A stretch of DNA of 10,476 nt, from the NCBI GenBank assembly GCA_004524535.1, contig SDNY01000126.1, positions 1-10,476 on the forward strand, written 5' to 3'. Both the position numbers and the translations under genes were made by a program. Under the pieces are notes generated by a model. It did no database searches. It had not been told where the DNA came from and saw only the letters and a program-made list of their open reading frames with translations. Every line of letters starts with the position of its first letter. The stretch's first letter is position 1. Shown here one piece after another: positions 1 through 10,476 of this stretch. The DNA comes from Promethearchaeota archaeon. Lineage in GTDB: Archaea > Asgardarchaeota > Lokiarchaeia > Sigyniarchaeales > SOKP01.

Positions 1-374
1 ATCAAAAAGTTCAGCATATTGTTAGTAAAGTGAGAAGTAAGACACCGCTTGATGGATATCAAGTTTTAAAAAGCATATTCCCAGCAGGTACTCTTTCAGG
101 AGCCCCTAAAAAGCGGGCCATGGAAATAATACAAGAATTAGAAACAGAAAATCGCTCAATTTATGGAGGTTCTATAGGATACTTCAGTTTCAACGGAGAT
201 CTCGCGATGGCTATAGCAATTAGAACATTATTCGGAAGGAATAATACATATTTTGCTCAAGCTGGAGGTGGAATAGTGGCAGATTCTCAACCTGAACAAG
301 AATATATTGAGACATACAATAAATTATATAGCGTCTTAAAATCAATAAAAATATCGGAGGCAATGGAGCGATGA
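1..374 (+). CDS. trpE: Anthranilate synthase component I, C-terminal part (runs off the left edge)
   Basis: Frame is open from position 3 (QKVQHIVSKVR...), upstream of the called GTG at 30. Chorismate-binding motifs VQHIVS, FPAGTLSGAPKKRAMEII, R-IYGG-IGY, AIAIRT and QAGGGIVADS are present. GTLSGAPK fits TrpE better than PabB. ATGA overlap with trpG. Confidence 0.9.
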   Translation, partial: QKVQHIVSKVRSKTPLDGYQVLKSIFPAGTLSGAPKKRAMEIIQELETENRSIYGGSIGYFSFNGDLAMAIAIRTLFGRNNTYFAQAGGGIVADSQPEQEYIETYNKLYSVLKSIKISEAMER

Positions 375-976
375 ATATATTATTTATAAACAATTATGAT
401 AGCTTTGTTTATAATCTCGTGAACTATTTTTGTCAATTAGCTCCAAACGCTAATATAACCATCGAGGATAATAATATCTCTGTTGAGAAGGTTGAAGAAT
501 ATTCTGCTGATAAAATTATTATTTCTCCAGGACCAGGTCATCCCAAATACGACACAGGTACCGTTATTCCCATCATTAAGAAATATTTTAAAAAAATTCC
601 TATATTAGGGATATGTCTTGGACATCAAGCAATTGTTGAATCATTCGGAGAGAACCAAGATTTAGAATATGTTGGTCGAGCTAAAGTAGGACCGATGCAT
701 GGTAAGGAATCTAAAGTTTTTCATGACCAAGAAAGTATTTTTGAAGATATTCCTAATCCATTAATGGTCATTCGATATCATTCTCTCTCTGCTAAATCTG
801 ATTTATTACCACAAGAATTAAAAATAACAGCTACAGCTGATGATGGCACAATTATGGGGGTTAGACATAAGAATTATCCAGTGGAAGGTGTTCAATTTCA
901 CCCCGAATCCATTAGAATGAAGCCTCATGGAATGCAAATCTTGAAAAATTTCTTGGAATTAAAAATTAAAAGATAG
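371..976 (+). CDS. trpG: Anthranilate synthase component II / class I glutamine amidotransferase (intact copy, C1)
   Basis: Motifs NNYDSF, ISPGPGHP, GICLGHQ (catalytic Cys), HGK, RYHSL and QFHPES (His/Glu of the triad). Translationally coupled to trpE. Confidence 0.93.
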   Translation: MNILFINNYDSFVYNLVNYFCQLAPNANITIEDNNISVEKVEEYSADKIIISPGPGHPKYDTGTVIPIIKKYFKKIPILGICLGHQAIVESFGENQDLEYVGRAKVGPMHGKESKVFHDQESIFEDIPNPLMVIRYHSLSAKSDLLPQELKITATADDGTIMGVRHKNYPVEGVQFHPESIRMKPHGMQILKNFLELKIKR

Positions 977-1010
977 ATTTTTAAAATGTAATTAAAAGGA
1001 TTTTATACAA

Positions 1011-1274
1011 TTACATCATTAAAAGGCGACTTCCATGGATTATTCTAGCAATTTCTAATATTTCCTCTTTGAAACGATATATTATCCTGAAATTTCGATA
1101 GATAATTTCCCTTATCTCTTCATTTTCTAATTCAGGAACAATTCTACCCATTTTGGGAAATTGGTTTAAGTTTTCAATAATATAAATAATTTTCTTGGCA
1201 AGGGTTTGAGCAAATTTTGGTGCAGTTTTTTCATAATATTTGATTATTGAGTCGTAATCATCAGCAGCATTTTT
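1011..1274 (-). pseudogene. RelE/ParE-family toxin, 5'-truncated (not in the ORF track)
   Basis: Manual translation gives 87 aa: KNAADDYDSIIKYYEKTAPKFAQTLAKKIIYIIENLNQFPKMGRIVPELENEEIREIIYRNFRIIYRFKEEILEIARIIHGSRLLMM*. FP-MGR-VPE, REI, RIIYR and IIHG-R are RelE/ParE hallmarks. In-frame TAA at 1275-1277 and no start codon, so the first few residues are missing. Confidence 0.85.
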
Positions 1275-1993
1275 TTAACGCCAATAGCGTTAGGATTTAA
1301 CGCCTTTTTTCTAGTTAAATAACCTTTTTCATAGAGTCTCATTACAACTTGTCTAACTCCATAAATATAATTCAAGTTATCAAATTGCTCTAAATCTGTT
1401 ATAAAATGCCATTTTCCGTCTAACTCTCTCATAACATCCAACTGTTTATTATTCAAGTGAATTGCCACTCTTTGAGCATTATTTATAAAGAACTTCTTAA
1501 AATCAAATTTAGGAACATCAATTTTAACTCCCGTCTTCTTTTCAAATTGCTTTATTATATAATCTTGCATCTCTTCTGGTTCAATTCTCTTAAGCTTACC
1601 ATTTATTTCTTCAAATCCTACCACTATCAAGATTATACCTAATTCATCACAAATTTCTTTCTTAAATTTATCTATTGATATTTGATTTCTGAAACCATTA
1701 TCATTTCGATGCCAAGCATCAACTCTCTCATAATGTTGTCTTCCATTTCTTTCTATTCCAATGCCTAACTCTTCATTATATCCATCTAAATGCCTTTTAT
1801 AAACGTTATGTGTTGAATATTTCAAAACAAAATTCCCTAAATTTTTATATCCAATTCTTGAATCAATTACACTGTCAAAGGTAGTTTTTGGAAATTTAAT
1901 TTCTCTATGGTAAATATAAGAGAAAATTCTTTCCATATATCCAATGCAAATGAGAGAGGTTTCTTTAAATTTTTTAGATAAAATTAACTTATA
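1244..1993 (-). CDS. Vsr/DUF559-like PD-(D/E)XK endonuclease-domain protein, probably a fragment
   Basis: HLDGYNEELGIGIERNGRQHY...Q...D..K...C.ELGIILIVV matches the LDGY..E..G.QHY restriction-fold motif. The frame stays open from the ATG at 1936 up to 1993 (SKKFKETSLICIGY). The C-terminal MLLMITTQ is an out-of-frame read of the ParE gene. Confidence 0.6.
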   Translation of the reverse strand, partial: YKLILSKKFKETSLICIGYMERIFSYIYHREIKFPKTTFDSVIDSRIGYKNLGNFVLKYSTHNVYKRHLDGYNEELGIGIERNGRQHYERVDAWHRNDNGFRNQISIDKFKKEICDELGIILIVVGFEEINGKLKRIEPEEMQDYIIKQFEKKTGVKIDVPKFDFKKFFINNAQRVAIHLNNKQLDVMRELDGKWHFITDLEQFDNLNYIYGVRQVVMRLYEKGYLTRKKALNPNAIGVKKMLLMITTQ

Positions 1994-2107
1994 TTAAGGC
2001 AAAAGATTAATAACGATTAAAGACAATTTCTGATACTTCTGCAGAGTAGAATCCAATTATGGTTGAAATAACTATTTTTTTGATGAATTTATTTGGCTCT
2101 ATACGTT

Positions 2108-2458
2108 TTATATATTTAAGTTTATTTCTCTAATTTTTTTTGCTAATTGCTCATCATTCCTAGCGATTAACTTTACTATCAAGGTTTTTGTTTGTTCAAT
2201 ATCTGATTTTGAGGTTATTCCTCTTTTCTTAACTTCATCTATCAAATCCCATAATGATGTTTTTGTTGTATTTGCTGCTTGTTCTAAAGTATACCCTTTT
2301 TGGTATAATTCAAGAGCTATATCAATTTTTTTTGTTTCTATTCCCTTATTAATAACATCCCTAACAATGGAAGCACGATCTACTCCAAGTAAATCTGCTA
2401 AACTGTCTAATTCTTTTAAAATATTCGCTTTAATCCTAACTGAAAGATTTTTTAACAT
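2108..2458 (-). CDS. Antitoxin with RHH/CopG-like N-terminus and UPF0175-like HTH region
   Basis: KNLSVRI...LD-LA...VDRASIVR (ribbon-helix-helix) followed by IALELYQKG-TLEQAA...SLWDL...KRGI (UPF0175/COG2886-like). TAATG overlap with the upstream PIN gene. Confidence 0.75.
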   Translation of the reverse strand: MLKNLSVRIKANILKELDSLADLLGVDRASIVRDVINKGIETKKIDIALELYQKGYTLEQAANTTKTSLWDLIDEVKKRGITSKSDIEQTKTLIVKLIARNDEQLAKKIREINLNI

Positions 2459-2952
2459 TATTCACTCATTAATTCTTTTGTTTTTTTTATAAGGAACATA
2501 TCTTCATATGAAGGGCTTGCTACCATAATCCATTTTTGAAAAAGTTGTTCAAATTGTTCATCATCAATCTTCTGTTGTTTATATGCATCTAAAAGAGTTA
2601 TTGGAACACTATAAACTTGTAAATCAAAGCTCTCAGCAATTCTAATTGCTTTTTTATCATCTACTAAACAAGAGCATTTTAAATCAATAGCATTTAAAAT
2701 AGTATCAGTTTCACCCACACCAAGTCCCATCTCAACTTCAGAGTTCTTCTCAACATCATGAACCTGAATATCATGCTTTTTTATTAATTTTTCCCCAATA
2801 AAAGCATCTGGCTTACCCCTATTCTTTCCATTCAATATAACCTCTTGATGCACTGAAGATGTGATTATTAGCTCTTCGTATAATTCTTTTAAAACATTTA
2901 TCCAGTCCATTTTTATTGAATAAATAAAGGAACTGGCATCTATTTTTATCAT
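2458..2952 (-). CDS. PIN-domain toxin, DUF3368/COG2405-like
   Basis: Acidic PIN motifs IDASSFI, SSVHQEV, LGVGETDTI and LVDDKKA. AAGGA lies just upstream of the start. Confidence 0.85.
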   Translation of the reverse strand: MIKIDASSFIYSIKMDWINVLKELYEELIITSSVHQEVILNGKNRGKPDAFIGEKLIKKHDIQVHDVEKNSEVEMGLGVGETDTILNAIDLKCSCLVDDKKAIRIAESFDLQVYSVPITLLDAYKQQKIDDEQFEQLFQKWIMVASPSYEDMFLIKKTKELMSE

Positions 2953-3009
2953 TTTTCCTTATGCTTGTTTTATTATTCTTTCAAATATCATATGTAATCT
3001 GAAGTATTT

Positions 3010-3060
3010 AAATGTATACATTTTGTATTCATCTCTATGTATTTATATACCTCTTTTTTC
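3010..3060 (-). promoter_or_regulatory. Putative archaeal promoter and operator of the PIN/UPF0175 pair
   Basis: Minus strand reads purine-rich GAAAAAAGAGG then TATATAAA (3049-3042). A perfect 14-bp palindrome AAATGTATACATTT (3010-3023) covers the expected transcription start. Confidence 0.5.
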
Positions 3061-3122
3061 TGATATTTAGACCTTGAGTTAATATAAGGATAAAATTATC
3101 AGAGAAAACCTGCAAATTTATT

Positions 3123-3555
3123 TCATTCTAAATTAAATATTCCAGATTTAATACTTTTTGGAATTTTATCAAAGTCATAGAAAAAACTTGAATTTTCCTC
3201 CTCATTACCACAGTCATAACATCTCAAAGAACAGTAGAAAATTTCATTGATCCACCAATCCTTAACCATTAATTCCTTGATTTTGGCAGCAATAGTGCAT
3301 TTTAATCTGAGTTGGAGATTTCTTCCACCACAACCTTGACATTTAAATTCTTTCCTCGCTTCTTCCTCTTGAAAATCATAAAAATCCTTAAGAATTTCTT
3401 CTATTTTTTCAGATGTTAGCTGATGTTTAGCTTGTAAATGTTGATATAAATTGTCTTCTGCGCTTTTAAATAGTCCAGTTTTATAATTACAAAAAGGATA
3501 TTTAAGCGATCCATTGGGATATTATTCCCCTGTATATTTTTTAAAATTTTACCAT
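3123..3555 (-). pseudogene. Zinc-finger protein pseudogene, C2H2-like plus C4 ribbon (not in the ORF track)
   Basis: A 132-codon open stretch runs 3521->3126: YPNGSLKYPFCNYKT...NLYQHLQAKH...FKCQGCGG...LRCYDCGN...IFNLE*. The probable ATG at 3555 overlaps the upstream gene's last codons. It is followed by a 1-nt frameshift in a T/A run and a TAA at 3524-3522. Confidence 0.65.
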
Positions 3556-6191
3556 TTTAACTGAGAGTTCCATTCTTTTAATAAGACTTCGTTATCTTTT
3601 TGATCAATAAGTTTCTGAAAGCCATCAAAGCGTTCAATAAAATAATCGGAAGAATTTAGAATTTTTCTTAATGCACCAATTAGATTTTTACTGAAATAGC
3701 CATAATCATTATGTAAATAACTAATGAAAGATTTTAAGCTTATACAAATGTCTTTCATAGATGTGCGGGTTGTGATTAATTTTTCTTTTATAATGTGAAG
3801 ACCCAAAAATTTTAGAAGCGTCTCTTCATTTATATAATTATCAATATCTTCTGAAATACTGCTAAAATCTTCCTCTTTTATCAACTTAATTAGATAGGTT
3901 AGGAACAGTTCAATATGTTTGACCTTCTTATTAATAGTTTCTTGTCGCAAGCTTTTATCTTCTAAAGTGAGTTCAAAATCAGAACTTAGAGATTCTATAA
4001 AACTAATTAGTTCTGAATAACTTTCTAACTCACTTGGAATTTTTCCGAACATATAAAATGCAGGACACCATCTATAGGGTTTGTCTAAACAACGATTCGG
4101 GCATGTTTTACATTCATCTATCAATATTATTATGGTGTTCCATAAAGTATTAAAAAGACCCTCATCAGTAATAAAGAAGCGAGCAAGTTTATAAATTGGA
4201 TTCCTAAGTAAATCCTCGTTATTTGAAAACACTCCATAATCTATACTAAAAGATGTCCTATTTTTAGATTTTTTAAACGAGTTTAAGATTTGATTAGTAG
4301 CTTTTTTAGAGATTTGAAAGCAAAGATTAATAAAATCTTCAGAGGCAATTAAATATGGTAAATTAAAATAATTTTCATAGTAAATCGTGTGAAAATTCTC
4401 TGCTAAGTGGTTTGCTAACTCAAATACAAACCAATTCTTTAGAATATGGTCTTCCTTATTTGGGAAATGAGATAAGCTATTTCTTAATAAGTCGTTTAGA
4501 TGATTCATAAAACCTTCATCTCTGATTTTATTTCCATATAGTTCCATTACTTTGATGGCATTTGAAATAATTTTTTCTGAGAATTTCAACAAATCCTTAA
4601 ATTTCTCCTCTTTGATTTTAATCGTATTAAGAGTATCTCGGGATTTGATCCTATCATGGACCCAATAACGTAACACGAAGTTTATTAATCTTTCTTTTTC
4701 TACCAATCCTGCTAATTTCAGAGCCTGTTTAAATGTTAATTCTAACTGATAAGAACTAATGGCTAATTGTAAAATTAAATTGAAATCAAATGGGCAAAAT
4801 TGTAATAAAAGACTTGTAAGTATTATTGAACTATGAAAATACCCGCCAACCTCAAGTAAGTATGAAAAATCCATATAGGTTTCAATCCTATATGGATCAA
4901 ATTCAAGGCTCTTAATATGACATAAAAGAGCATTATAATGAGCTCCTTGCTCGCCCAAGATCTTTCCTTTCAAATAGTATGCTGCTGCGCTCTCTGGTGC
5001 TTTTTTTATTAGCTTATTTATTAGAACAAGAGCCTTTTTGCTATGCCCGTTATAAAATTTTTCTTTTGCTTCCGTGAATAACTTTTGTTCTTCATTATCA
5101 GAATAACAATCTTTCCAACCATCCCAGCTAGATTTTATAAATCTCATTCTTTTCGAGTACGAATAAGAGATTGATTCCAGAAATTCCATATGATGAGATA
5201 ATTCTAAATTTATGTCCTTCGGTAAATTAAATAAAATTGTATAAAGATCTCTACTCGCAAAAGGAGTATTATTATCTATAGGAACTATTTCATTAATATA
5301 TTTATCAACATTTAGAAAATTTTCTAAATCTGCTTTAGTTTTGCAAGAATCAGAAATTTCTAAAAGAAATTCGTCGCCTTCTACATAACTCAACACGGTT
5401 GCAATATAACCTTGAAATGAGTTTATATCTACGTTTAAATCATCTAATAATTTGGAAAAGGATGTCTTTACAACATATCCTGCCAAGAAAAAGGTGTTAT
5501 ATAACATCAATAACCTAAAAAAGTATCGATTCTGAGTTGCAGAGCTTTTAAGTATTCTAAGAACTTTTGATGGGAGGGTTTCAATTTTTAAGAATTCATC
5601 AATAAAGAATAAAATTCTCTGAAAATTGGAATCCTCAATTGTCTTAAATAACTCTAAAATGGCGTTCATCACATTTTTTTTTGATTTTTTTTCAAAGTAG
5701 TTACGCATACGATTGAATTCTGCCTCATCCTCATGAAGTCTCTCAAAGTTAAGTGCCCAATCAATAATTTTATTTTTAATCTCAACAATTTCTTTATTCT
5801 TATCATTATCACTTAACTCCTCAATTATTTCATGAGTTTTAGAAATTTTTTCTACAATTTCATGCTGAATATTTCGACTCAGGATGTCTTGTAAAGTCAG
5901 ATAGTTTATAAAATCTAAAATAATCGTTTGAATCTTATATAGTGGGATTTCTAGTAATGAGGTCTGTGGATATAAGGATAATAAAAATTGATTAATATAA
6001 TTAACATTAAATTGATTTCGGTTGAATTTATTATTATTATTCTTAAGATATTCTTTTAAAAATGAAAGAATTACAGTCTTTGCTGTATTTAAATCTTTTT
6101 TCGATTGAAATTTTTTAGATAAAAAATATTTTGGTAATATTGTTTCGCATTTTACCATAAATTTTTCTAGATTGAAATCATTTTTTTCCAT
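3549..6191 (-). CDS. 880-aa TPR protein with N- and C-terminal integrase core-binding (SAM-like) domains and a Cys4 cluster
   Basis: Central TPRs (ALVLINKLIKKAPESAAAYYLKGKILGEQG; SLEFDPYRIETY). Cys cluster CKTCPNRC..PYRWC. The C-terminal F...LEDKSL..ETINK...IELFLTYL...KFLG..I...SLKSFISYL resembles the tyrosine-recombinase core-binding fold by eye. The CDS is confident; the domain calls are not verified. Confidence 0.75.
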   Translation of the reverse strand: MEKNDFNLEKFMVKCETILPKYFLSKKFQSKKDLNTAKTVILSFLKEYLKNNNNKFNRNQFNVNYINQFLLSLYPQTSLLEIPLYKIQTIILDFINYLTLQDILSRNIQHEIVEKISKTHEIIEELSDNDKNKEIVEIKNKIIDWALNFERLHEDEAEFNRMRNYFEKKSKKNVMNAILELFKTIEDSNFQRILFFIDEFLKIETLPSKVLRILKSSATQNRYFFRLLMLYNTFFLAGYVVKTSFSKLLDDLNVDINSFQGYIATVLSYVEGDEFLLEISDSCKTKADLENFLNVDKYINEIVPIDNNTPFASRDLYTILFNLPKDINLELSHHMEFLESISYSYSKRMRFIKSSWDGWKDCYSDNEEQKLFTEAKEKFYNGHSKKALVLINKLIKKAPESAAAYYLKGKILGEQGAHYNALLCHIKSLEFDPYRIETYMDFSYLLEVGGYFHSSIILTSLLLQFCPFDFNLILQLAISSYQLELTFKQALKLAGLVEKERLINFVLRYWVHDRIKSRDTLNTIKIKEEKFKDLLKFSEKIISNAIKVMELYGNKIRDEGFMNHLNDLLRNSLSHFPNKEDHILKNWFVFELANHLAENFHTIYYENYFNLPYLIASEDFINLCFQISKKATNQILNSFKKSKNRTSFSIDYGVFSNNEDLLRNPIYKLARFFITDEGLFNTLWNTIIILIDECKTCPNRCLDKPYRWCPAFYMFGKIPSELESYSELISFIESLSSDFELTLEDKSLRQETINKKVKHIELFLTYLIKLIKEEDFSSISEDIDNYINEETLLKFLGLHIIKEKLITTRTSMKDICISLKSFISYLHNDYGYFSKNLIGALRKILNSSDYFIERFDGFQKLIDQKDNEVLLKEWNSQLKW

Positions 6192-6402
6192 AAAAATTAA
6201 AATTCGTATTATCTATTTAATGTATTTTGATTTACAGTTAATAATCTCTAAGAGGAATCACTTTACTGAAAGAGAGTTTCCTAGCCATTTTTGTCGGAGT
6301 GGCCGATTATTATTAACTCCAAAACAATAAAGAATTCAGAATTAGTGCAATTATTAACAGATTAAGACAAAGTTAAAAAAATAAAACAATATTTGTTGAT
6401 AT

Positions 6403-7047
6403 ATGGAAGATTTTATTGACATTGACCATTCGGTTAGTAATGATTTTGATGAATTAATGGATATGGAATTGGCAGATTCTTCCTTGCTAATAAAGAGGCT
6501 CAGAGAACTGATTAAAGCAGATCCAGAATATTTTGACTCTTATATATATCTCCATAACTTATATCTTGAAATGGAAGATTATACTGAATGTAAGAAAATA
6601 CTATTAGAGGGATATGAACGAGCTCTAAAGCGGATTCTAAATATAAATAATCAATGGCCTTCTCGGTTAAGATGGAGCTATATTGAGAATAGACATATAA
6701 TACGTTTATTTGAAACCGTTGGATTATGGTTTTGGCGAAATAAGGAATATAATAAAGCTTTAGATCTTTTTCGAAAATTATTGAAATCAAATCCAATTGA
6801 TAATATTGGGGCACGATATTATATACTTGCTTTAAGGATCAAAGTCGAGTATGATAACTTTGATGAAATATTGGATAAAGGAGGATATTATGATGAAGAG
6901 ATTAATAAATGGTTTAATCAAGATTATAATAGATTCCCAGATGAATTTAATTGGTGGATAAAAGAGCTGGAAGCGGAACAAGAACAATTAAATAATGAGA
7001 ATTTCAAATTTCGGTCATCTAAGTTTTTCTTCAGATTACTAAACTAG
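6403..7047 (+). CDS. TPR-like hypothetical protein
   Basis: 214-aa helical-repeat ORF (LIKADPEYFDSYIYL; KALDLFRKLLKSNPIDNIGARYY), divergent from the 880-aa gene. Confidence 0.75.
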   Translation: MEDFIDIDHSVSNDFDELMDMELADSSLLIKRLRELIKADPEYFDSYIYLHNLYLEMEDYTECKKILLEGYERALKRILNINNQWPSRLRWSYIENRHIIRLFETVGLWFWRNKEYNKALDLFRKLLKSNPIDNIGARYYILALRIKVEYDNFDEILDKGGYYDEEINKWFNQDYNRFPDEFNWWIKELEAEQEQLNNENFKFRSSKFFFRLLN

Positions 7048-7057
7048 AAATAATTGA

Positions 7058-7079
7058 TAGTTTATATACCTATAAACTA
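7058..7079. repeat. 9-bp inverted repeat containing a TATA-like box
   Basis: TAGTTTATA-tacc-TATAAACTA is a perfect stem between the TPR gene stop and trpG copy C2. It could be an operator or a terminator. Confidence 0.5.
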
Positions 7080-7113
7080 AATTTTAATTATATCTAAATT
7101 TTTATAAAAAAAA

Positions 7114-7700
7114 ATCCTATTTATTAACAATTATGATAGTTTTGTTTATAATTTGGTTAATTATATCTGTCAATTAGAACCCAACGGCCAAATTATTGTC
7201 GAAGATAACAATGTTGCGGTGGATAAGATTAAAGAAATAAATGTTGATAAAATCATTATTTCACCAGGACCTGGACATTCTAAGTATGACACGGGCACAG
7301 TAATTCTAATCATTAAAGGATTTTACTTTAAAATACCAATATTAGGAATTTGTCTAAGTCATCAAGCAATTGTTGAAGCCTTCGGCGAAGATGAGAATAT
7401 GGAATACGTGGGAAGAGCTAAAGTAGGTCCTATGCATGGTAAGGAATCTAAAATCTTTCATGACCAAGAAACAATTCTTAAGGATGTTCCTAATCCACTT
7501 CAAGTAATTAGATATCACTCCCTTTCCGCAAGATCCAATATTTTACCTCAAAACCTAAAGATCAGCGCGTCCGCGGATGATGGCACATCATGGGTGTTCG
7601 GCATAAGAAATATCCGGTAGAAAGGCTGCAATTCCATCCCGAGTTGATAAAAATGAAACCACACGGGATGCAGATATTGAAAAATTTCTTAGAATTATAA
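7114..7700 (+). pseudogene. trpG: trpG relic C2, near full length
   Basis: Reads ILFINNYDSF...FLEL*. No start codon (ATA plus A-run, in-frame TAA at 7105). A 1-bp deletion near 7587 (acaatc->acatc) shifts the frame. Motif changes CLG->CLS, EGVQ->ERLQ and HPES->HPEL. About 76% identical to C1 over the last 270 nt (hand count). The called ORF 7153-7620 is part of this relic. Confidence 0.93.
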
Positions 7701-7710
7701 ATAAAAAAAT

Positions 7711-7747
7711 GGTATACTTTATATACCTATTATACTATATATACCGT
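7711..7747 (+). promoter_or_regulatory. TATA box with a 4x TATAC operator-like array
   Basis: TTTATATA at 7718-7725, 22 nt before the ATG at 7748 (leaderless spacing). TATAC occurs at 7713, 7722, 7731 and 7740. GGTATA-N5-TATACC inverted repeat at 7711-7727. Confidence 0.6.
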
Positions 7748-8014
7748 ATGAGCAAAAATACCACTATGAAACTTTCAAAAGAAACTTTGGAAAAATTGCA
7801 TAAGTTAGCTGGAGAGATCGCAGCAGAAAAGGGTAGAAGGGTAACTTTAGAAGAAGCACTTTTAGTGTTATTAGAAGAAAAGGAGAGGAAGAAAAACGAA
7901 ATGAATTCACATAAAGCTAATGAGGATAGAAAAGAACTTCTGTCCTTATTAGAAATGAAAATCGAAGGTGCAGGTCCTGAAGATTTTAAAGAATATGATT
8001 TTAACGATTTATAG
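7748..8014 (+). CDS. Antitoxin (VapB-like, RHH-type N-terminus)
   Basis: MSKNTTMKLSKETLEKL...G-RVTLEEAL with an acidic tail, directly upstream of a PIN gene. Start moved from 7709 to 7748 because the extension is the promoter. Confidence 0.75.
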   Translation: MSKNTTMKLSKETLEKLHKLAGEIAAEKGRRVTLEEALLVLLEEKERKKNEMNSHKANEDRKELLSLLEMKIEGAGPEDFKEYDFNDL

Positions 8015-8026
8015 GAGAAAATAATA

Positions 8027-8506
8027 ATGCAAATCTATATTGATACAGAACTCTGGGTTTTTGCTCAAAAATCACCAGATCCCTCAAGATTTAAAGACAA
8101 AGCTGAATATAATAGGATGTTAGATTTCCATATTAAATCTAGAAAATTCTTACAGGAGCAATTTGCTAATAACACAATTTCAATGACTACCCATCAATTA
8201 TGTGAACTATATCATGCGTTAGGTTTTAGAGGGCAAAAAATGGAACCCACTGAATTAATGAAATACTGTAGAAAGCTAACTGCAAATAAAATAATTACAT
8301 GGTATATAATTTCTAATGATGTCATTAATCAAGCAATAAACTTAAGTGCAAATAGTAAAGTACATATTTGGGATTATATCTGTGTTTTACCACTCTATAA
8401 AGACGTAGAAGTCATTTATTCATGTGATGATCATTTTAAAGATGAAACATTTCAATCATTAGGCCCTAAGATTGAAAATCCTATAGGGGAATGGATCAGT
8501 CTTTAA
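8027..8506 (+). CDS. PIN-domain (VapC-like) toxin
   Basis: Motifs IYIDTELW, QLCELY, HIWDY and IYSCDDHF. AGGAG at 8013-8017. Confidence 0.85.
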   Translation: MQIYIDTELWVFAQKSPDPSRFKDKAEYNRMLDFHIKSRKFLQEQFANNTISMTTHQLCELYHALGFRGQKMEPTELMKYCRKLTANKIITWYIISNDVINQAINLSANSKVHIWDYICVLPLYKDVEVIYSCDDHFKDETFQSLGPKIENPIGEWISL

Positions 8507-8528
8507 AAAGATTGAATACTAAAATTAT

Positions 8529-8588
8529 GAATCCATTAAAATGAAGCCCTATGGGATGCAAATTCTAAAAATTTTCTTGGAATTATAA
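8529..8588 (+). pseudogene. trpG: trpG relic C3, last 20 codons
   Basis: Translates as ESIKMKPYGMQILKIFLEL*. 51/60 nt identical to 905-964 (hand count), without gaps. Confidence 0.9.
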
Positions 8589-9044
8589 CTTTTTATTAAT
8601 TTTCTTTTCAATATCCTGACTTTGCGATTTCTTTTCCAAGAGATTGATGACATCAACAGTCTTATAGATAATTATTTTCGTTTGCTCATTAAAATGTTTA
8701 TCATTAGACCATATTCCATCATTTGTAATCGACAAAGATAATGCAATGAATTCAGTCTCTTTTTCATCAATTTTACCCATTATTTTTAATGCCTCATCCA
8801 TGTCTTTTTCATATTCCTTAATAGGAACTAAATTTAAGTTTTCTAATAAAATATTTAGAAGCTTTTTTATTTCTTCCTCAGTTTTTCCAGATTTTTGAAT
8901 AATGTAATGAAGATATTTCTTTACTTCACTCATAACGATTTCGGGTAAATAAAATTCGAATGATTCATTAAGAAGTAGTTCTCTAGTTGTTGAGTCTTTT
9001 AATAAGCTAGAGATTAATACATTAGTATCAATAATAAGCTTCAT
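8583..9044 (-). CDS. PIN-domain (VapC-like) toxin
   Basis: Motifs LIIDTNVLIS, VMSEV, DEKETEFIALS and IWSNDKHF. ATGA overlap with the upstream antitoxin. Confidence 0.88.
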   Translation of the reverse strand: MKLIIDTNVLISSLLKDSTTRELLLNESFEFYLPEIVMSEVKKYLHYIIQKSGKTEEEIKKLLNILLENLNLVPIKEYEKDMDEALKIMGKIDEKETEFIALSLSITNDGIWSNDKHFNEQTKIIIYKTVDVINLLEKKSQSQDIEKKINKKL

Positions 9045-9283
9045 TTTATCAGTTTTTCAAGATAATCTTTATGCTTTTGCCAACTTCTTTTAGTAATTTC
9101 ATTACTAATATCTTCAACATCATCTATAGTTAATTTACTAGTTGAGGTGATCTTTTCGGTGATTTCAATCTTTTCTATATAACGCTCTAAAGCGGATTGA
9201 GCAATGGTTTCCCATTTTATTTCTGGATGTTTTTTCATCTTTTCGAGTAAAGATTTTGATATATTAAGTTTGATCTCTGTCAT
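9041..9283 (-). CDS. RHH-type antitoxin
   Basis: MTEIKLNISKSLLEKMKKHPEIKWETIAQSALERYI is a common archaeal RHH antitoxin pattern, coupled to the PIN gene. The start is probably 9283 or 9292 rather than the TTG at 9301. Confidence 0.78.
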   Translation of the reverse strand: MTEIKLNISKSLLEKMKKHPEIKWETIAQSALERYIEKIEITEKITSTSKLTIDDVEDISNEITKRSWQKHKDYLEKLIK

Positions 9284-9342
9284 ATTATTCATATTATACA
9301 AATTTTCTAATTAATATATTTTTTTCTTGAGAATTGGGTAAT

Positions 9343-9564
9343 TTAATTAATATTTTTTAATCGTGATTTATATAGATATTTTTCTATTTCTTCCCATTCT
9401 TCAGAATCCTTTTCAAATAAACCTGTAAATTCTTCTATTAAATTTTTTCCTTTTTCTTTATCTATCAATCGGAGAATATAATTCGAAAGGGATTCATCTT
9501 TATGTTTCAAATCCTTTATCTTATTATACACTTCTTCAGAAATATCTATTGATTTATCAGTCAT
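9343..9564 (-). CDS. VapB-family antitoxin (DUF217/COG1753-like), with no cognate toxin adjacent
   Basis: KSIDISEEVYNKIKDLK-KDESLSNYILRLI...L-EF-G matches the K-I-IS-E-Y--L--LK---ES-S--I-RL pattern. Confidence 0.8.
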   Translation of the reverse strand: MTDKSIDISEEVYNKIKDLKHKDESLSNYILRLIDKEKGKNLIEEFTGLFEKDSEEWEEIEKYLYKSRLKNIN

Positions 9565-9640
9565 ATTCTAGTTCTATTAAGTAATTTTTAGTATTTATTT
9601 GTATTTGTCATAAAAACATTATAAATTGAGAGTATTTTAA

Positions 9641-9907
9641 GATTTATGTAATGAATGGAAAACTAAAAATCTTTCAAATAAAGACGACAAAAATTCGATC
9701 TATATCACCTCGAAATTTGTCGGAACGTAAAGATCTTACAAGAATGATCAAAAATGGCAAATTTTTAATGGAAAATGGGCAAAATGGGGATTTTTCTTCA
9801 AAAAATATCACTCGGGCTCTTCCGACATTAAAAGAAATGATATAGCCCAGATTATTGTCGGTTTTAAATTAATGATTTTCAAATTTCAATCAAAACGAAA
9901 AAATTAA
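9641..9907 (+). pseudogene. Possible decayed gene fragment of unknown family
   Basis: A frame other than the called 64-aa ORF runs 89 codons with one internal stop (9728): DLCNEWKTKNLSNKDDKNSIYITSKFVGT*RSYKNDQKWQIFNGKWAKWGFFFKKYHSGSSDIKRNDIAQIIVGFK... No family recognised. Confidence 0.3.
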
Positions 9908-9956
9908 AAATACACTCAATTATAATATTACTTTAGAATTAATTCATCTTGTTTTT

Positions 9957-10226
9957 ATGCACGGCAAGGAATCTAAAATCTTTCACGACCAAGAAAGAAT
10001 TCTTAAAGACATCCCTAATCCACTCTAAGTAATTAGATATCACTCACTTTCCGCAAAATCCGATATTTTACCCCAAGACCTAAAAATTAGTGCGACTGCG
10101 GATGATGGCACGATCATGGGGGTTAGGCATAAACAATATCCTATAGAAGGGGTCCAATTCCATCCCGAGTCGATAAAAATGAAACCCTATGGGATGAAAA
10201 TATTAAAAAACTTCTTGGAACTATGA
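9957..10226 (+). pseudogene. trpG: trpG relic C4, 3' 90 codons
   Basis: MHGKESKIFHDQE...QFHPES...FLEL* is collinear with 695-964. Nonsense CAA->TAA at 10026. About 77% identical to C1 and 84% to C2 (hand count). Confidence 0.93.
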
Positions 10227-10380
10227 ATATGATTTAAAAATTTAAAAAGGATAAATGAGATTTACGTACTCTCACATTAAAAAGAAAAAAAATTAGATTT
10301 AGAATTTGATTTTGCTCAAGATATTATTTTCTTTTTTATAATAAAAATTTATATAATAGAGTTCGAATTTATATTATAGA

Positions 10381-10476
10381 ATGCAAACTATTAAAGAAAG
10401 ATTAAAGAAAATAATTGATGATCAACCTGATGATGCATCTTATGAGGAAATCTTACGAGAAATGCTCTTTGATAAA
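10381..10476 (+). CDS. Probable antitoxin of a RelE/ParE module (runs off the right edge)
   Basis: MQTIKERLKKIIDDQPDDASYEEILREMLFDK... shows the K....I...PDD.S.EEI pattern of small proteins usually encoded upstream of RelE/ParE toxins. AT-rich TATA-like sequence lies upstream. Confidence 0.65.
   Translation, partial: MQTIKERLKKIIDDQPDDASYEEILREMLFDK

Follow-up and report, generated by a model that had tools for sequence, protein, structure and literature searches.

The stretch of DNA analysed here, called the window, is the whole of contig C80 (SDNY01000126.1; 10,476 nt) in a metagenome-assembled genome (MAG) of a Promethearchaeota (Asgard) archaeon. The genome comprises 198 contigs and 3.66 Mb with a GC content of about 29%, and its completeness and contamination are estimated at 99% and 4.4%. 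The window opens inside trpE and carries one intact trpG followed by three truncated 3' copies of the same gene, referred to here as relics, with accessory genes, the cargo, lying between them (Table 1). A preliminary description made from the letters alone had reported four direct-orientation copies of trpG, and repeat finding, BLAST and pairwise alignment recovered all four on the + strand at closely similar positions. The array to which these copies belong, and the manner in which it may have grown by the uptake of DNA from related archaea, are the subject of this report.

Table 1. Features of the window (contig C80). aa, amino acids; ORF, open reading frame; RHH, ribbon-helix-helix; E, E value.
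Feature	Position	Strand	Evidence or remark
R1, right-hand 149 nt (exact repeat of 261 nt, inside trpE)	1..149	+	letter-identical to C167
trpE 3' end (anthranilate synthase component I), open frame running off the contig start	3..374	+	Pfam Chorismate_bind E 3.1e-37, profile 150-257/257; NCBIfam TrpE models
Intact trpG, 201 aa (anthranilate synthase component II)	371..976	+	Pfam GATase E 3.5e-55; NCBIfam TIGR00566 trpG_papA 179.6 bits, cut-off 121
Block 94.8% identical to C167:7498-7881 (relic tail and ParE gene)	888..1271	+	sequence comparison
46-aa ParE remnant, within the 888-1271 block	1011..1151	-	ParE_toxin E 1.1e-6
Cargo, 230-aa ORF	1244..1936	-	no family match
Cargo, two-gene module arranged like a toxin-antitoxin pair	2108..2952	-	116-aa RHH (CopG) protein, RHH_1 E 5.8e-5; 164-aa protein, PADLOC candidate family PDC-S70 E 2.2e-16
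Cargo, 880-aa ORF	3549..6191	-	no Pfam, NCBIfam or PADLOC match
Cargo, 214-aa ORF	6403..7047	+	weak TPR_19 match under the curated cut-off
Relic 2, near full-length trpG pseudogene	7108/7111-7703 (gene nt 371/374-976)	+	start codon gone; 1-nt deletion at 7586/7587; 0 in-frame stops
Cargo cassette, ORFs of 101 aa and 159 aa	7709..8506	+	no family match
Relic 3, 60-nt trpG tail encoding ESIKMKPYGMQILKIFLEL then stop	8529..8588	+	84% identity over 63 nt, blastn E 3.7e-11
Cargo, 153-aa PIN_2 toxin-like gene and upstream 86-aa ORF, toxin-antitoxin arrangement	8583..9301	-	PIN_2 E 1.2e-24; TIGR00305 under cut-off
Cargo, 73-aa VapB-type antitoxin-like ORF	9343..9564	-	VAPB_antitox E 2e-10
Dispersed repeat	9612..9930	.	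copies at C121:23940-24258 (82%) and C119:1-160 (96%)
Relic 4, trpG codons 109-197, one in-frame stop	9957..10229	+	pairwise alignment
R2, left-hand 149 nt (exact repeat of 155 nt), common to C167	10328..10476	+	continues into C133 reverse or C138 reverse

The start of trpG overlaps the end of the open trpE fragment (371 versus 374), and the gene shares 74-77% nucleotide identity with the trpG of contig C167, of the same-genus genome G008 and of other relatives. Its last 89 nt belong to the separately derived block at 888-1271, and because this block matches the relic-plus-ParE unit of C167 at the identity given in Table 1, the tail of the window trpG is chimeric, with a breakpoint near 888. 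Relic 2 is 84% identical to the trpG of C167 versus 75% to the intact trpG beside it. All three relics of the window end at a stop codon after NFLEL, and the intact gene has four extra codons (KIKR); in tblastn against the whole genome the three gave E values of 4e-87, 0.002 and 6e-48. Both ends of the contig lie in exact repeats, and directly after position 149 the identity between C80 and C167 falls to 56-82% per 50 nt. The identical 149-nt contig ends were dismissed as a biological feature, being partly an effect of contig cutting; the true exact repeats measure 261 and 155 nt.

Relics continue beyond the window edge, as had been suspected from the window alone. The whole genome holds two full-length trpG genes, both intact (201 and 197 aa), and 21 relics on six contigs, all on one strand within each contig (tblastn): seven lie on C167, five on C138, three each on C80 and C133, two on C18 and one on C123. 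Through R1 and R2, contig C52 leads into C80 or C167, either of these leads into C133 reverse or C138 reverse, and C133 reverse leads back into C80 or C167. The path that uses each contig once therefore runs from C52 to C80 or C167, then to C133 reverse, to the other of the first two, and to C138 reverse, which suggests, provided that the overlaps reflect true joins, a trpE-trpG-anchored array of about 63 kb. At its end, C133 reverse carries a trpE fragment of 350 nt (Pfam profile 41-159), and since this fragment continues through R1, one of the 'relics' consists of about 820 nt of trpE and a whole, still intact trpG. The full-length trpE may be joined to the trpG of either C80 or C167, as the overlaps fit both orders and the outer 149 nt at each end of the window are parts of exact repeats that occur on other contigs as well.

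An arrangement of this kind could also be a product of assembly or binning, that is, a chimera of coexisting strains or species, at least in the order of its parts. The number of contigs and the estimated contamination of the MAG would allow for it, and C80 and C167 begin and end in the same exact repeats, so that their order is not readable from overlaps. Likewise, the similar depth of the C80-type contigs (48-54x) and of a C167-type variant contig (62x) also fits two equally abundant strains. Against this, relics inside contigs differ by 5-25%, and k-mer collapse cannot create them. A second assembler, applied to the probable source run, gave contigs that cover 30 of 30 depth bins of the window at about 54x away from repeats; two of these, of 6188 nt (1224-7411) and 1229 nt (8465-9693), match the window with no difference and span the junction of the first cargo block with relic 2 and both flanks of relic 3. 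The second assembly uses the same reads and hence rules out an assembler-specific chimera only. C133 requires both C80/C167-type ends on one molecule, and the same layout occurs in independent assemblies, on contigs of 289 kb and 498 kb and on dozens of metagenome contigs from other projects. An artefact is accordingly quite improbable as an account of the array, although a chimera could still affect the contig order.

In run X2, a second sample of the same study, low-depth contigs join the trpG body or tail to relic or post-relic sequence farther downstream (window 857-7629 and 956-10344). Shorter arrays in related populations would give rise to such joints, and the joints have also been counted on the side of an artefact; with their low depth, likeness below 95 and short sides they fall under the reliability bar and were used as evidence for neither.

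What the relics are can be read from their codon structure. Between the C167 trpG and relic 2, the differences at codon positions 1, 2 and 3 number 20, 11 and 65; they number 16, 12 and 57 for the relic at C167:5196 and 9, 5 and 38 for that at C138:71479. Two functional trpG genes, those of C167 and G008, differ by 21, 5 and 58. An excess at the third position was present in all eight long relic-versus-gene comparisons within the genome and in one of two in relatives. Because the differences concentrate on third codon positions, the relics diverged as functional genes: they are the 3' parts of displaced, once-functional alleles that diverged in separate lineages, and did not decay in place. 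Several of them resemble the gene of another genome. For example, relic 4, the relic at C167:18739-19128 and the one on C123 share 91-93% identity with G008's functional trpG and 74-76% with the window's own; relic 4 is 95% identical to C167:18739-19128 and 93% to the G008 gene.

Related Promethearchaeota MAGs and metagenome contigs carry the same layout with different contents, their relics always lying on the strand of the gene. In a set of 40 related genomes, relics were found either behind trpG or by themselves, in several members of the same genus and in two other genera. In G008, a 289-kb contig carries trpE-trpG and then five relics, and its proximal cassettes are unlike those of the present genome. 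Farther out, G008 and C138 have a distal block in common, with genes for a DUF998 protein, an amine oxidase, an aldehyde ferredoxin oxidoreductase (AFOR), an amidohydrolase, URO-D-like and cellulase-like proteins and a major facilitator superfamily (MFS) transporter. Genomes G005 and G023 have no relic within 11 kb of trpG. Clear relics were found at 5 of 24 species-representative loci with a full trpG, two more being dubious, and 8 further loci had relics only; of 16 distinct metagenome loci that have a full trpG and extend 0.7 kb or more past it, 12 had one to three relics. None of 41 relic-bearing loci has relics on both strands. The expectation that relic number and cargo downstream of trpG vary between relatives is thus borne out in the 40 genomes and at the species-representative and metagenome loci, and an identical arrangement shared by relatives, which would have spoken for an old local duplication, was not what G008 and the others showed.

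Old duplications of trpG at the locus itself, decayed in place and later separated by unrelated insertions, would account for direct repeats on one strand, and some relics are indeed shared with the same-genus relative, such as the tails beside MFS transporter genes. This explanation is barely credible in view of the third-position bias, which is that of functional orthologues, of the several relics that match the functional gene of another species more closely than the intact trpG beside them, of the sharp breakpoints of homology, and of the differences in relic number and proximal cargo between close relatives.

The preliminary description had also placed the newest block next to trpE, in strict order of time. 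Within the distal block common to G008 and C138, the present genome has extra tail-bounded units; hence additions are not confined to the end near trpG. The window itself behaves as a single haplotype block, imported or displaced together, and a strict time order is doubtful.

The trpE-trpG region itself is a patchwork. The 5' part of trpE on C52 is 93-99% identical to that of G008 over most of its length, and the 3' part is 94-95% identical to it on C167 versus 75-79% on C80. Over alignment windows, C167 is 82-95% identical to the same-genus relative, and the window past position 149 shows 65-87% identity (mostly 71-83%) to all five relatives compared. By these comparisons, the trpE 3' end and trpG of the window are a foreign allele, and its sharp breakpoint lies directly behind a conserved block of 28 nt.

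One junction could be resolved to the letter. At C133 reverse 6299/6300, a trpG tail is cut 27 nt before its stop codon and fused to the middle of trpE, and the letters common to both sides (tail, GCAA(A)TT; trpE, GCAATTT) amount to a microhomology of 4-7 nt. Judged by its letters, the junction is an illegitimate join of the microhomology type and not a crossover at a conserved core. It lies about 0.5 kb from the exact repeat R1, so that this one event combines an exact repeat of 261 nt, which may have served as anchor or as crossover zone, with a microhomology join. To the right of the junction, the trpE segment departs from its copy on C52 at about ten sites, and because each copy matches the outgroup at some of them, the two are distinct alleles; an in-place target duplication of the segment is thereby ruled out. 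Homology-facilitated illegitimate recombination (HFIR) of a linear fragment yields the product found on C133, and so does a circle that integrates by a single crossover in R1.

The signature extends to other genes. The 3083 ORFs of the genome were compared with the genome by blastn, leaving out the trpG contigs and a contig of tandem paralogues, and partial copies were counted if they had at most half the gene length, at least 76% identity and a distance within 12 kb. A copy of the 3' end on the same strand lies downstream in 27 genes and upstream in 4, a copy of the 5' end upstream in 11 and downstream in 7, and over all categories 76 matches are on the same strand versus one on the opposite strand. 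The genes concerned include those for a topoisomerase, histidyl-tRNA synthetase (HisRS), S-adenosylhomocysteine hydrolase, ribosomal protein S17, a RadA-like protein, thioredoxin reductase, serine hydroxymethyltransferase and MsrA. The inserts of 0.3-10 kb hold toxin-antitoxin pairs (ParE, UPF0175, MNT/HEPN, PIN) and genes for LRR and WD40 proteins, glycosyltransferases, a rhamnosidase and DprA. The tails measure 28-377 nt. Contrary to what the window alone had implied, trpG is thus not special in kind, since no fewer than 27 other genes are followed by a copy of their own 3' end; the search for further core genes with 3' fragments that had been proposed along with that view was fruitful, and the inserts are without integrase. 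Such generality across genes argues against one att specificity.

At a ribosomal protein operon, an empty site is available for comparison. S17 and L14 are adjacent in a same-genus genome, which thus presents the empty site; here they are separated by a 2.07-kb insert, to which is added a relocated copy, 238 nt long, of a segment from farther down the operon, and the flanking duplication of 70 nt extends 22 nt into L14. On C188:33001-43000 (read on the - strand), the operon is interrupted twice relative to the same-genus genome, by 2.07 and 2.09 kb, and the second insert encodes a 585-aa ORF. A 127-aa ORF after the L5-like ORF, which we take to be S8 from the usual order of the operon, has its first 40 codons 4.6 kb upstream, 90% identical to the relative, and in place a divergent head (69%) that is out of frame with the native body; the genome's only copy of this ORF thus looks split or frameshifted. 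HisRS was considered as an example of a native relic beside a foreign tail and set aside as uninformative, since tail, relic and the relative's orthologue are about equidistant (92-94%). Likewise, C51:86000-101500, at first taken for seven stacked tails, is a tandem array of about ten paralogues of about 440 aa and was excluded; they lie about 1.47 kb apart, and the four members scanned gave no Pfam match.

The fixed 3' end of the relics can be viewed in this light. A single such end at the stop codon had been claimed for trpG, and the claim is borne out by the window and, genome-wide, by 19 of 20 relics (tblastn), with exceptions seen by eye: one C167 relic stops at aa 172, and three C133 relics lose homology 10-30 nt before the stop. 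At the other genes, about half of the pairs lose homology between gene end and copy at the stop, give or take a few nt, and in the others it runs 10-60 nt or more beyond it. Because homology passes the stop in so many pairs, the fixed 3' end is best understood as marking how far conservation between lineages extends and not as a cleavage site.

The reading that we prefer is sequential displacement without a recombinase, through a homologous anchor on one side and an illegitimate join on the other, and in our judgement it has about an even chance of being right. DNA from a related archaeon would enter the cell with its own trpE/trpG end and whatever lay downstream of it. One side would recombine via the trpE/trpG homology, and the other would be sealed by an illegitimate microhomology join, made either in the recipient, as in HFIR, or earlier in a circle that then integrates by a single homologous crossover. 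The incoming allele would keep the pathway intact, and the resident gene end would be pushed downstream. Existing tails may then serve as portable homology, by which units of cargo and tail could be passed between arrays, duplicated and deleted by homologous recombination. No dedicated recombinase would take part. We infer the direction and order of these events, the route of DNA entry and the role of tails as recombination substrates from the present arrangement. The preliminary description had likewise proposed repeated uptake from relatives, and the foreign alleles, the lack of integrase genes and the illegitimate junction agree with it; of its two routes, circle and HFIR, both are compatible. 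The data are best read as uptake from relatives without an integrase, and the accompanying claims of uniqueness, of strict time order and of freely variable 5' ends need correction.

The search for recombinases is central to this reading. The absence of integrase, transposase and attC from the window, noted at the outset, was upheld: none of its 16 ORFs gave an integrase or transposase match in Pfam. Matches to such families were also absent from 135 ORFs of the array and related contigs (C80, C133, C167, C138 at 32-72 kb, the end of C52, C123 and C18), from 62 ORFs around trpG in five relatives and from 142 ORFs at 29 other tail-duplication loci. Genome-wide, there are two PF00589 tyrosine recombinase candidates, a XerA-like protein with a SAM-like N-terminal domain beside cdc6 on C126 and a 585-aa protein on C144, no serine recombinase, no rve, one DDE_Tnp_1 match (C185) and one TnpB-type match over the cut-off (C160); the array contigs carry none of these. 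A tRNA- or ncRNA-based att site was considered and rejected, the window having no tRNA gene and no Rfam match at E <= 0.1. An attC-like structure was rejected too, as a consensus fold of 20 aligned tails gave no base pairs and an energy of 0 (RNAalifold, run without a dedicated attC model). Similarly, a trpG tail borne on a virus or plasmid was dropped as a candidate after two scans of viral contigs found none, which is no proof of absence. A conventional integrase thus finds no counterpart in these 339 ORFs. The signs of a short, fixed att core are mixed, as the tails have their last ~52 nt in common and mostly start close together, while the starts and lengths differ and the resolved junction lies inside a tail.

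The C144 protein (C144:14805-16559, - strand) scores 22.7 bits for Phage_integrase against a cut-off of 27.1, and is the sole tyrosine recombinase candidate besides the XerA-like gene. Its neighbours encode a 614-aa GmrSD_N protein and two ORFs without matches.

An enzyme could also act in trans, with the last 50-60 nt of trpG as its att site; cassettes without an integrase of their own would then be stacked, and the long relics would stem from separate homologous events. The XerA-like enzyme, the C144 protein or a recombinase on an unbinned plasmid or virus would be candidates, and the system would resemble integron cassettes or cis-mobilisable elements. The distribution of relic starts fits this. 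Relics starting at or after codon 165 make up 14 of 20 in this genome, 7 of 12 at species-representative loci and 29 of 41 at metagenome loci, so that 50 of 73 start within the last 33 codons; the 5' ends are thus clustered and not freely variable, as had been thought. By eye, the short tails start at no fewer than nine points within about 50 nt, around a block coding for QFHPES, and an invariant HPES-coding block at the tail start is of the sort that integrases may often target. All tails share the final ~52 nt, long relics measure 270-1300 nt, and identities range over 68-95%. Because a 23-nt search added only one further, shorter tail in the arrays, against 2.3 matches per Mb on both strands in the rest of the genome, the mode of relic length at 52-100 nt is real.

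The packing of cassettes points the same way. A cargo start codon lies 8 nt past the stop of relic 2 (7700/7709), and the cassette of 101 and 159 aa occurs with its following tail three times in the genome at about 85% identity and once more, at 68%, in a genome of another genus, where it immediately follows a trpG relic. Besides, trpG tails lie away from any intact trpG on C18 and C123. On the other side, no recombinase was found in the 339 ORFs around such loci in this genome and its relatives, the tails have nothing like attC, and neither viral-contig scan found a trpG tail. The 27 other genes, whose tails have no common sequence, would require many specificities, the resolved junction falls at a microhomology inside a tail and not at its end, and the variation among tails follows codon structure, as is expected for pieces of a functional gene. 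On balance, a recombinase in trans, the chief rival of displacement, is unlikely, with a real chance of being correct.

Several of these observations, with some others, weigh against displacement without a recombinase. Random illegitimate joins would not predict a mode of tail length or the clustering of 5' ends. The clustering can be accommodated if long tails invite deletion by homologous recombination and short ones survive, or if a few founder tails spread with their cassettes, and both accommodations are ad hoc. The tails beside the msrA tail on C18 and in the defence island of C123 are explained more simply by a mobile cassette that is recognised by its tail. A donor for the window trpG was sought in species-representative genomes and metagenome contigs, and none exceeded 86% aa identity, the best reaching 85-86%. 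Only one junction is in hand, and it fits HFIR and circle-plus-crossover alike. The tail-duplication scan covers this genome alone. MAG assemblies under-represent repeats and mobile elements, and for this reason a recombinase may reside on an unbinned plasmid or virus.

The two sites away from trpG deserve description. On C18:1-5400, msrA is followed by a 2.3-kb insert with a DprA-like protein (DNA_processg_A, E 2.2e-61) and a 242-aa ORF, then by a 187-nt msrA tail, a trpG tail 45 nt on, a PIN cassette and a second trpG tail, so that relics of two different genes are stacked side by side. The DprA-like gene in this tail-bounded insert at most hints at the uptake of linear DNA. On C123:47001-67000, a 369-nt trpG relic lies within a defence-type island with no intact trpG near; the island encodes a 1022-aa N6_Mtase/Eco57I-type protein, an AAA_15 and DUF3696 ATPase, and DUF4238 and DUF4760 proteins. 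Farther along that contig, the gene at C123:72013-73050 has two upstream copies of its own 5' end, 96% and 93% identical.

The cargo of the window comprises toxin-antitoxin-like pairs and ORFs without a family match (Table 1), and the locus had been described as one of toxin-antitoxin and defence genes. This is too narrow for the array, as the cargo on the linked contigs also includes metabolic and transport genes, namely those for a glycyl-radical enzyme, URO-D-like proteins, transporters and glycosidases. A TPR-like identity for the middle of the 880-aa protein was rejected, its scores of 0.85-0.86 being sub-threshold only. The dispersed repeat at 9612-9930 overlaps a 64-aa ORF without family match, and its summed contig depth in the source run is 113-145x. 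As for the surroundings of trpE, trpB-like and trpA genes lie about 7 kb upstream with unrelated genes between. Genes for eukaryotic-type small GTPases (Gtr1/RagA, Arf, Ras/Roc) are found on C52:30600-40599, C144 and C93; those on C52 (Gtr1/RagA and Arf-type), which lie near trpE, fit an Asgard archaeon.

The preliminary description knew of no system with this layout, yet related ones have been described. According to the passages of Kirchberger et al. (2017; PMC5361080) on type VI secretion system (T6SS) clusters of Vibrio cholerae, successive insertions of effector-immunity pairs shift the old effector 3' end and its immunity gene downstream. HFIR with a homologous anchor on the upstream side is proposed there for these arrays, and parallels are drawn with integrons and with strings of orphaned Rhs 3' ends, citing Jackson et al. 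(2009) on rhs; the same source cites de Vries and Wackernagel (2002), Prudhomme et al. (2002) and Meier and Wackernagel (2003) for HFIR in natural transformation. A main gene with displaced 3' ends and cargo is hence known for Rhs and T6SS loci, at least from these passages. As here, the arrays of Rhs, contact-dependent inhibition (CDI) and T6SS genes described in them consist of a main gene and then displaced 3' ends in the same orientation, each with its cargo, acquired horizontally from relatives without an integrase. The trpG array has the same-strand 3' fragments of earlier or foreign alleles, whereas the part displaced is the conserved tail of anthranilate synthase component II and not a variable toxin domain kept with its immunity gene. 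Unlike the bacterial arrays, it is anchored in a housekeeping gene with a conserved 3' end instead of a variable toxin tip, it carries cargo that has nothing to do with the anchor (toxin-antitoxin pairs, defence candidates, metabolic and signalling genes), with no immunity logic that would select for old units, and its host is an Asgard archaeon with the signature at 27 or more other genes.

Comparison with other systems is likewise partial. Like an integron, the array stacks small cassettes in one direction, most of them without a promoter and each closed by a 55-100-nt repeat, with additions beside a fixed anchor; unlike an integron, it has no IntI-like gene that could be found, its repeats are pieces of a coding gene without a conserved hairpin and reach 600-1300 nt, and some cargo blocks are 6-9 kb long with several genes. 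Accretion of integrative elements is known from integrative and conjugative elements (ICE) and cis-mobilisable elements (CIME) at fda in Streptococcus thermophilus, from tRNA-fragment arrays in Prochlorococcus islands and from 'gene capture' at Sulfolobus tRNA genes. In the accretion of ICE, integrative and mobilisable elements (IME) and CIME, too, the incoming 3' end restores the target gene and displaced tails form direct repeats that bound islands. In contrast, their repeats are short, of fixed length and near-identical, with an integrase in some units; here no integrase was found, and the tails differ by 5-25% and measure 50-1300 nt. HFIR has in common with the present case one homologous anchor and a microhomology join near it, as at the C133 junction about 0.5 kb from R1, but it is known from laboratory transformation of bacteria, whereas here it is read from sequence, and a circle with a single crossover fits equally.

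Among the papers listed in the literature search, no archaeal case of HFIR and no trpG-anchored array was found. As far as the passages of two papers on Asgard mobile elements go (PMC11529989; PMC8813620), they treat integrase-bearing elements with short att motifs, proviruses and viruses, transposons and tRNA-targeting 'aloposons'. The term-matched passages of both hold no mention of gene-tail arrays; their supplements might list att sites in protein-coding genes.

How Asgard archaea acquire genes is an open question on which the array bears. If displacement without a recombinase is true, such capture would explain large variable islands in genomes that are nearly without integrases and transposases. 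The relics would record donor alleles, so that transfers could be ordered and dated from sequence alone, and the concept of displacement arrays, drawn from bacterial toxin loci, would come to cover housekeeping genes and archaea too. There is also a practical side, as displaced intact copies and exact repeats in core genes break assemblies and can mislead MAG annotation and pathway calls. A wider version is possible, though rather doubtful: Promethearchaeota may gain much of their accessory DNA without a recombinase, via conserved gene ends throughout the genome, and at trpG the 55-100-nt tail may have become the handle of selfish, mostly toxin-antitoxin cassettes that spread between species by homologous recombination. 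If that were so, these archaea would possess an integron-like system without integrase or attC, each genome would be a readable ledger of past imports, and trpG would be the gene at which the process has run away.

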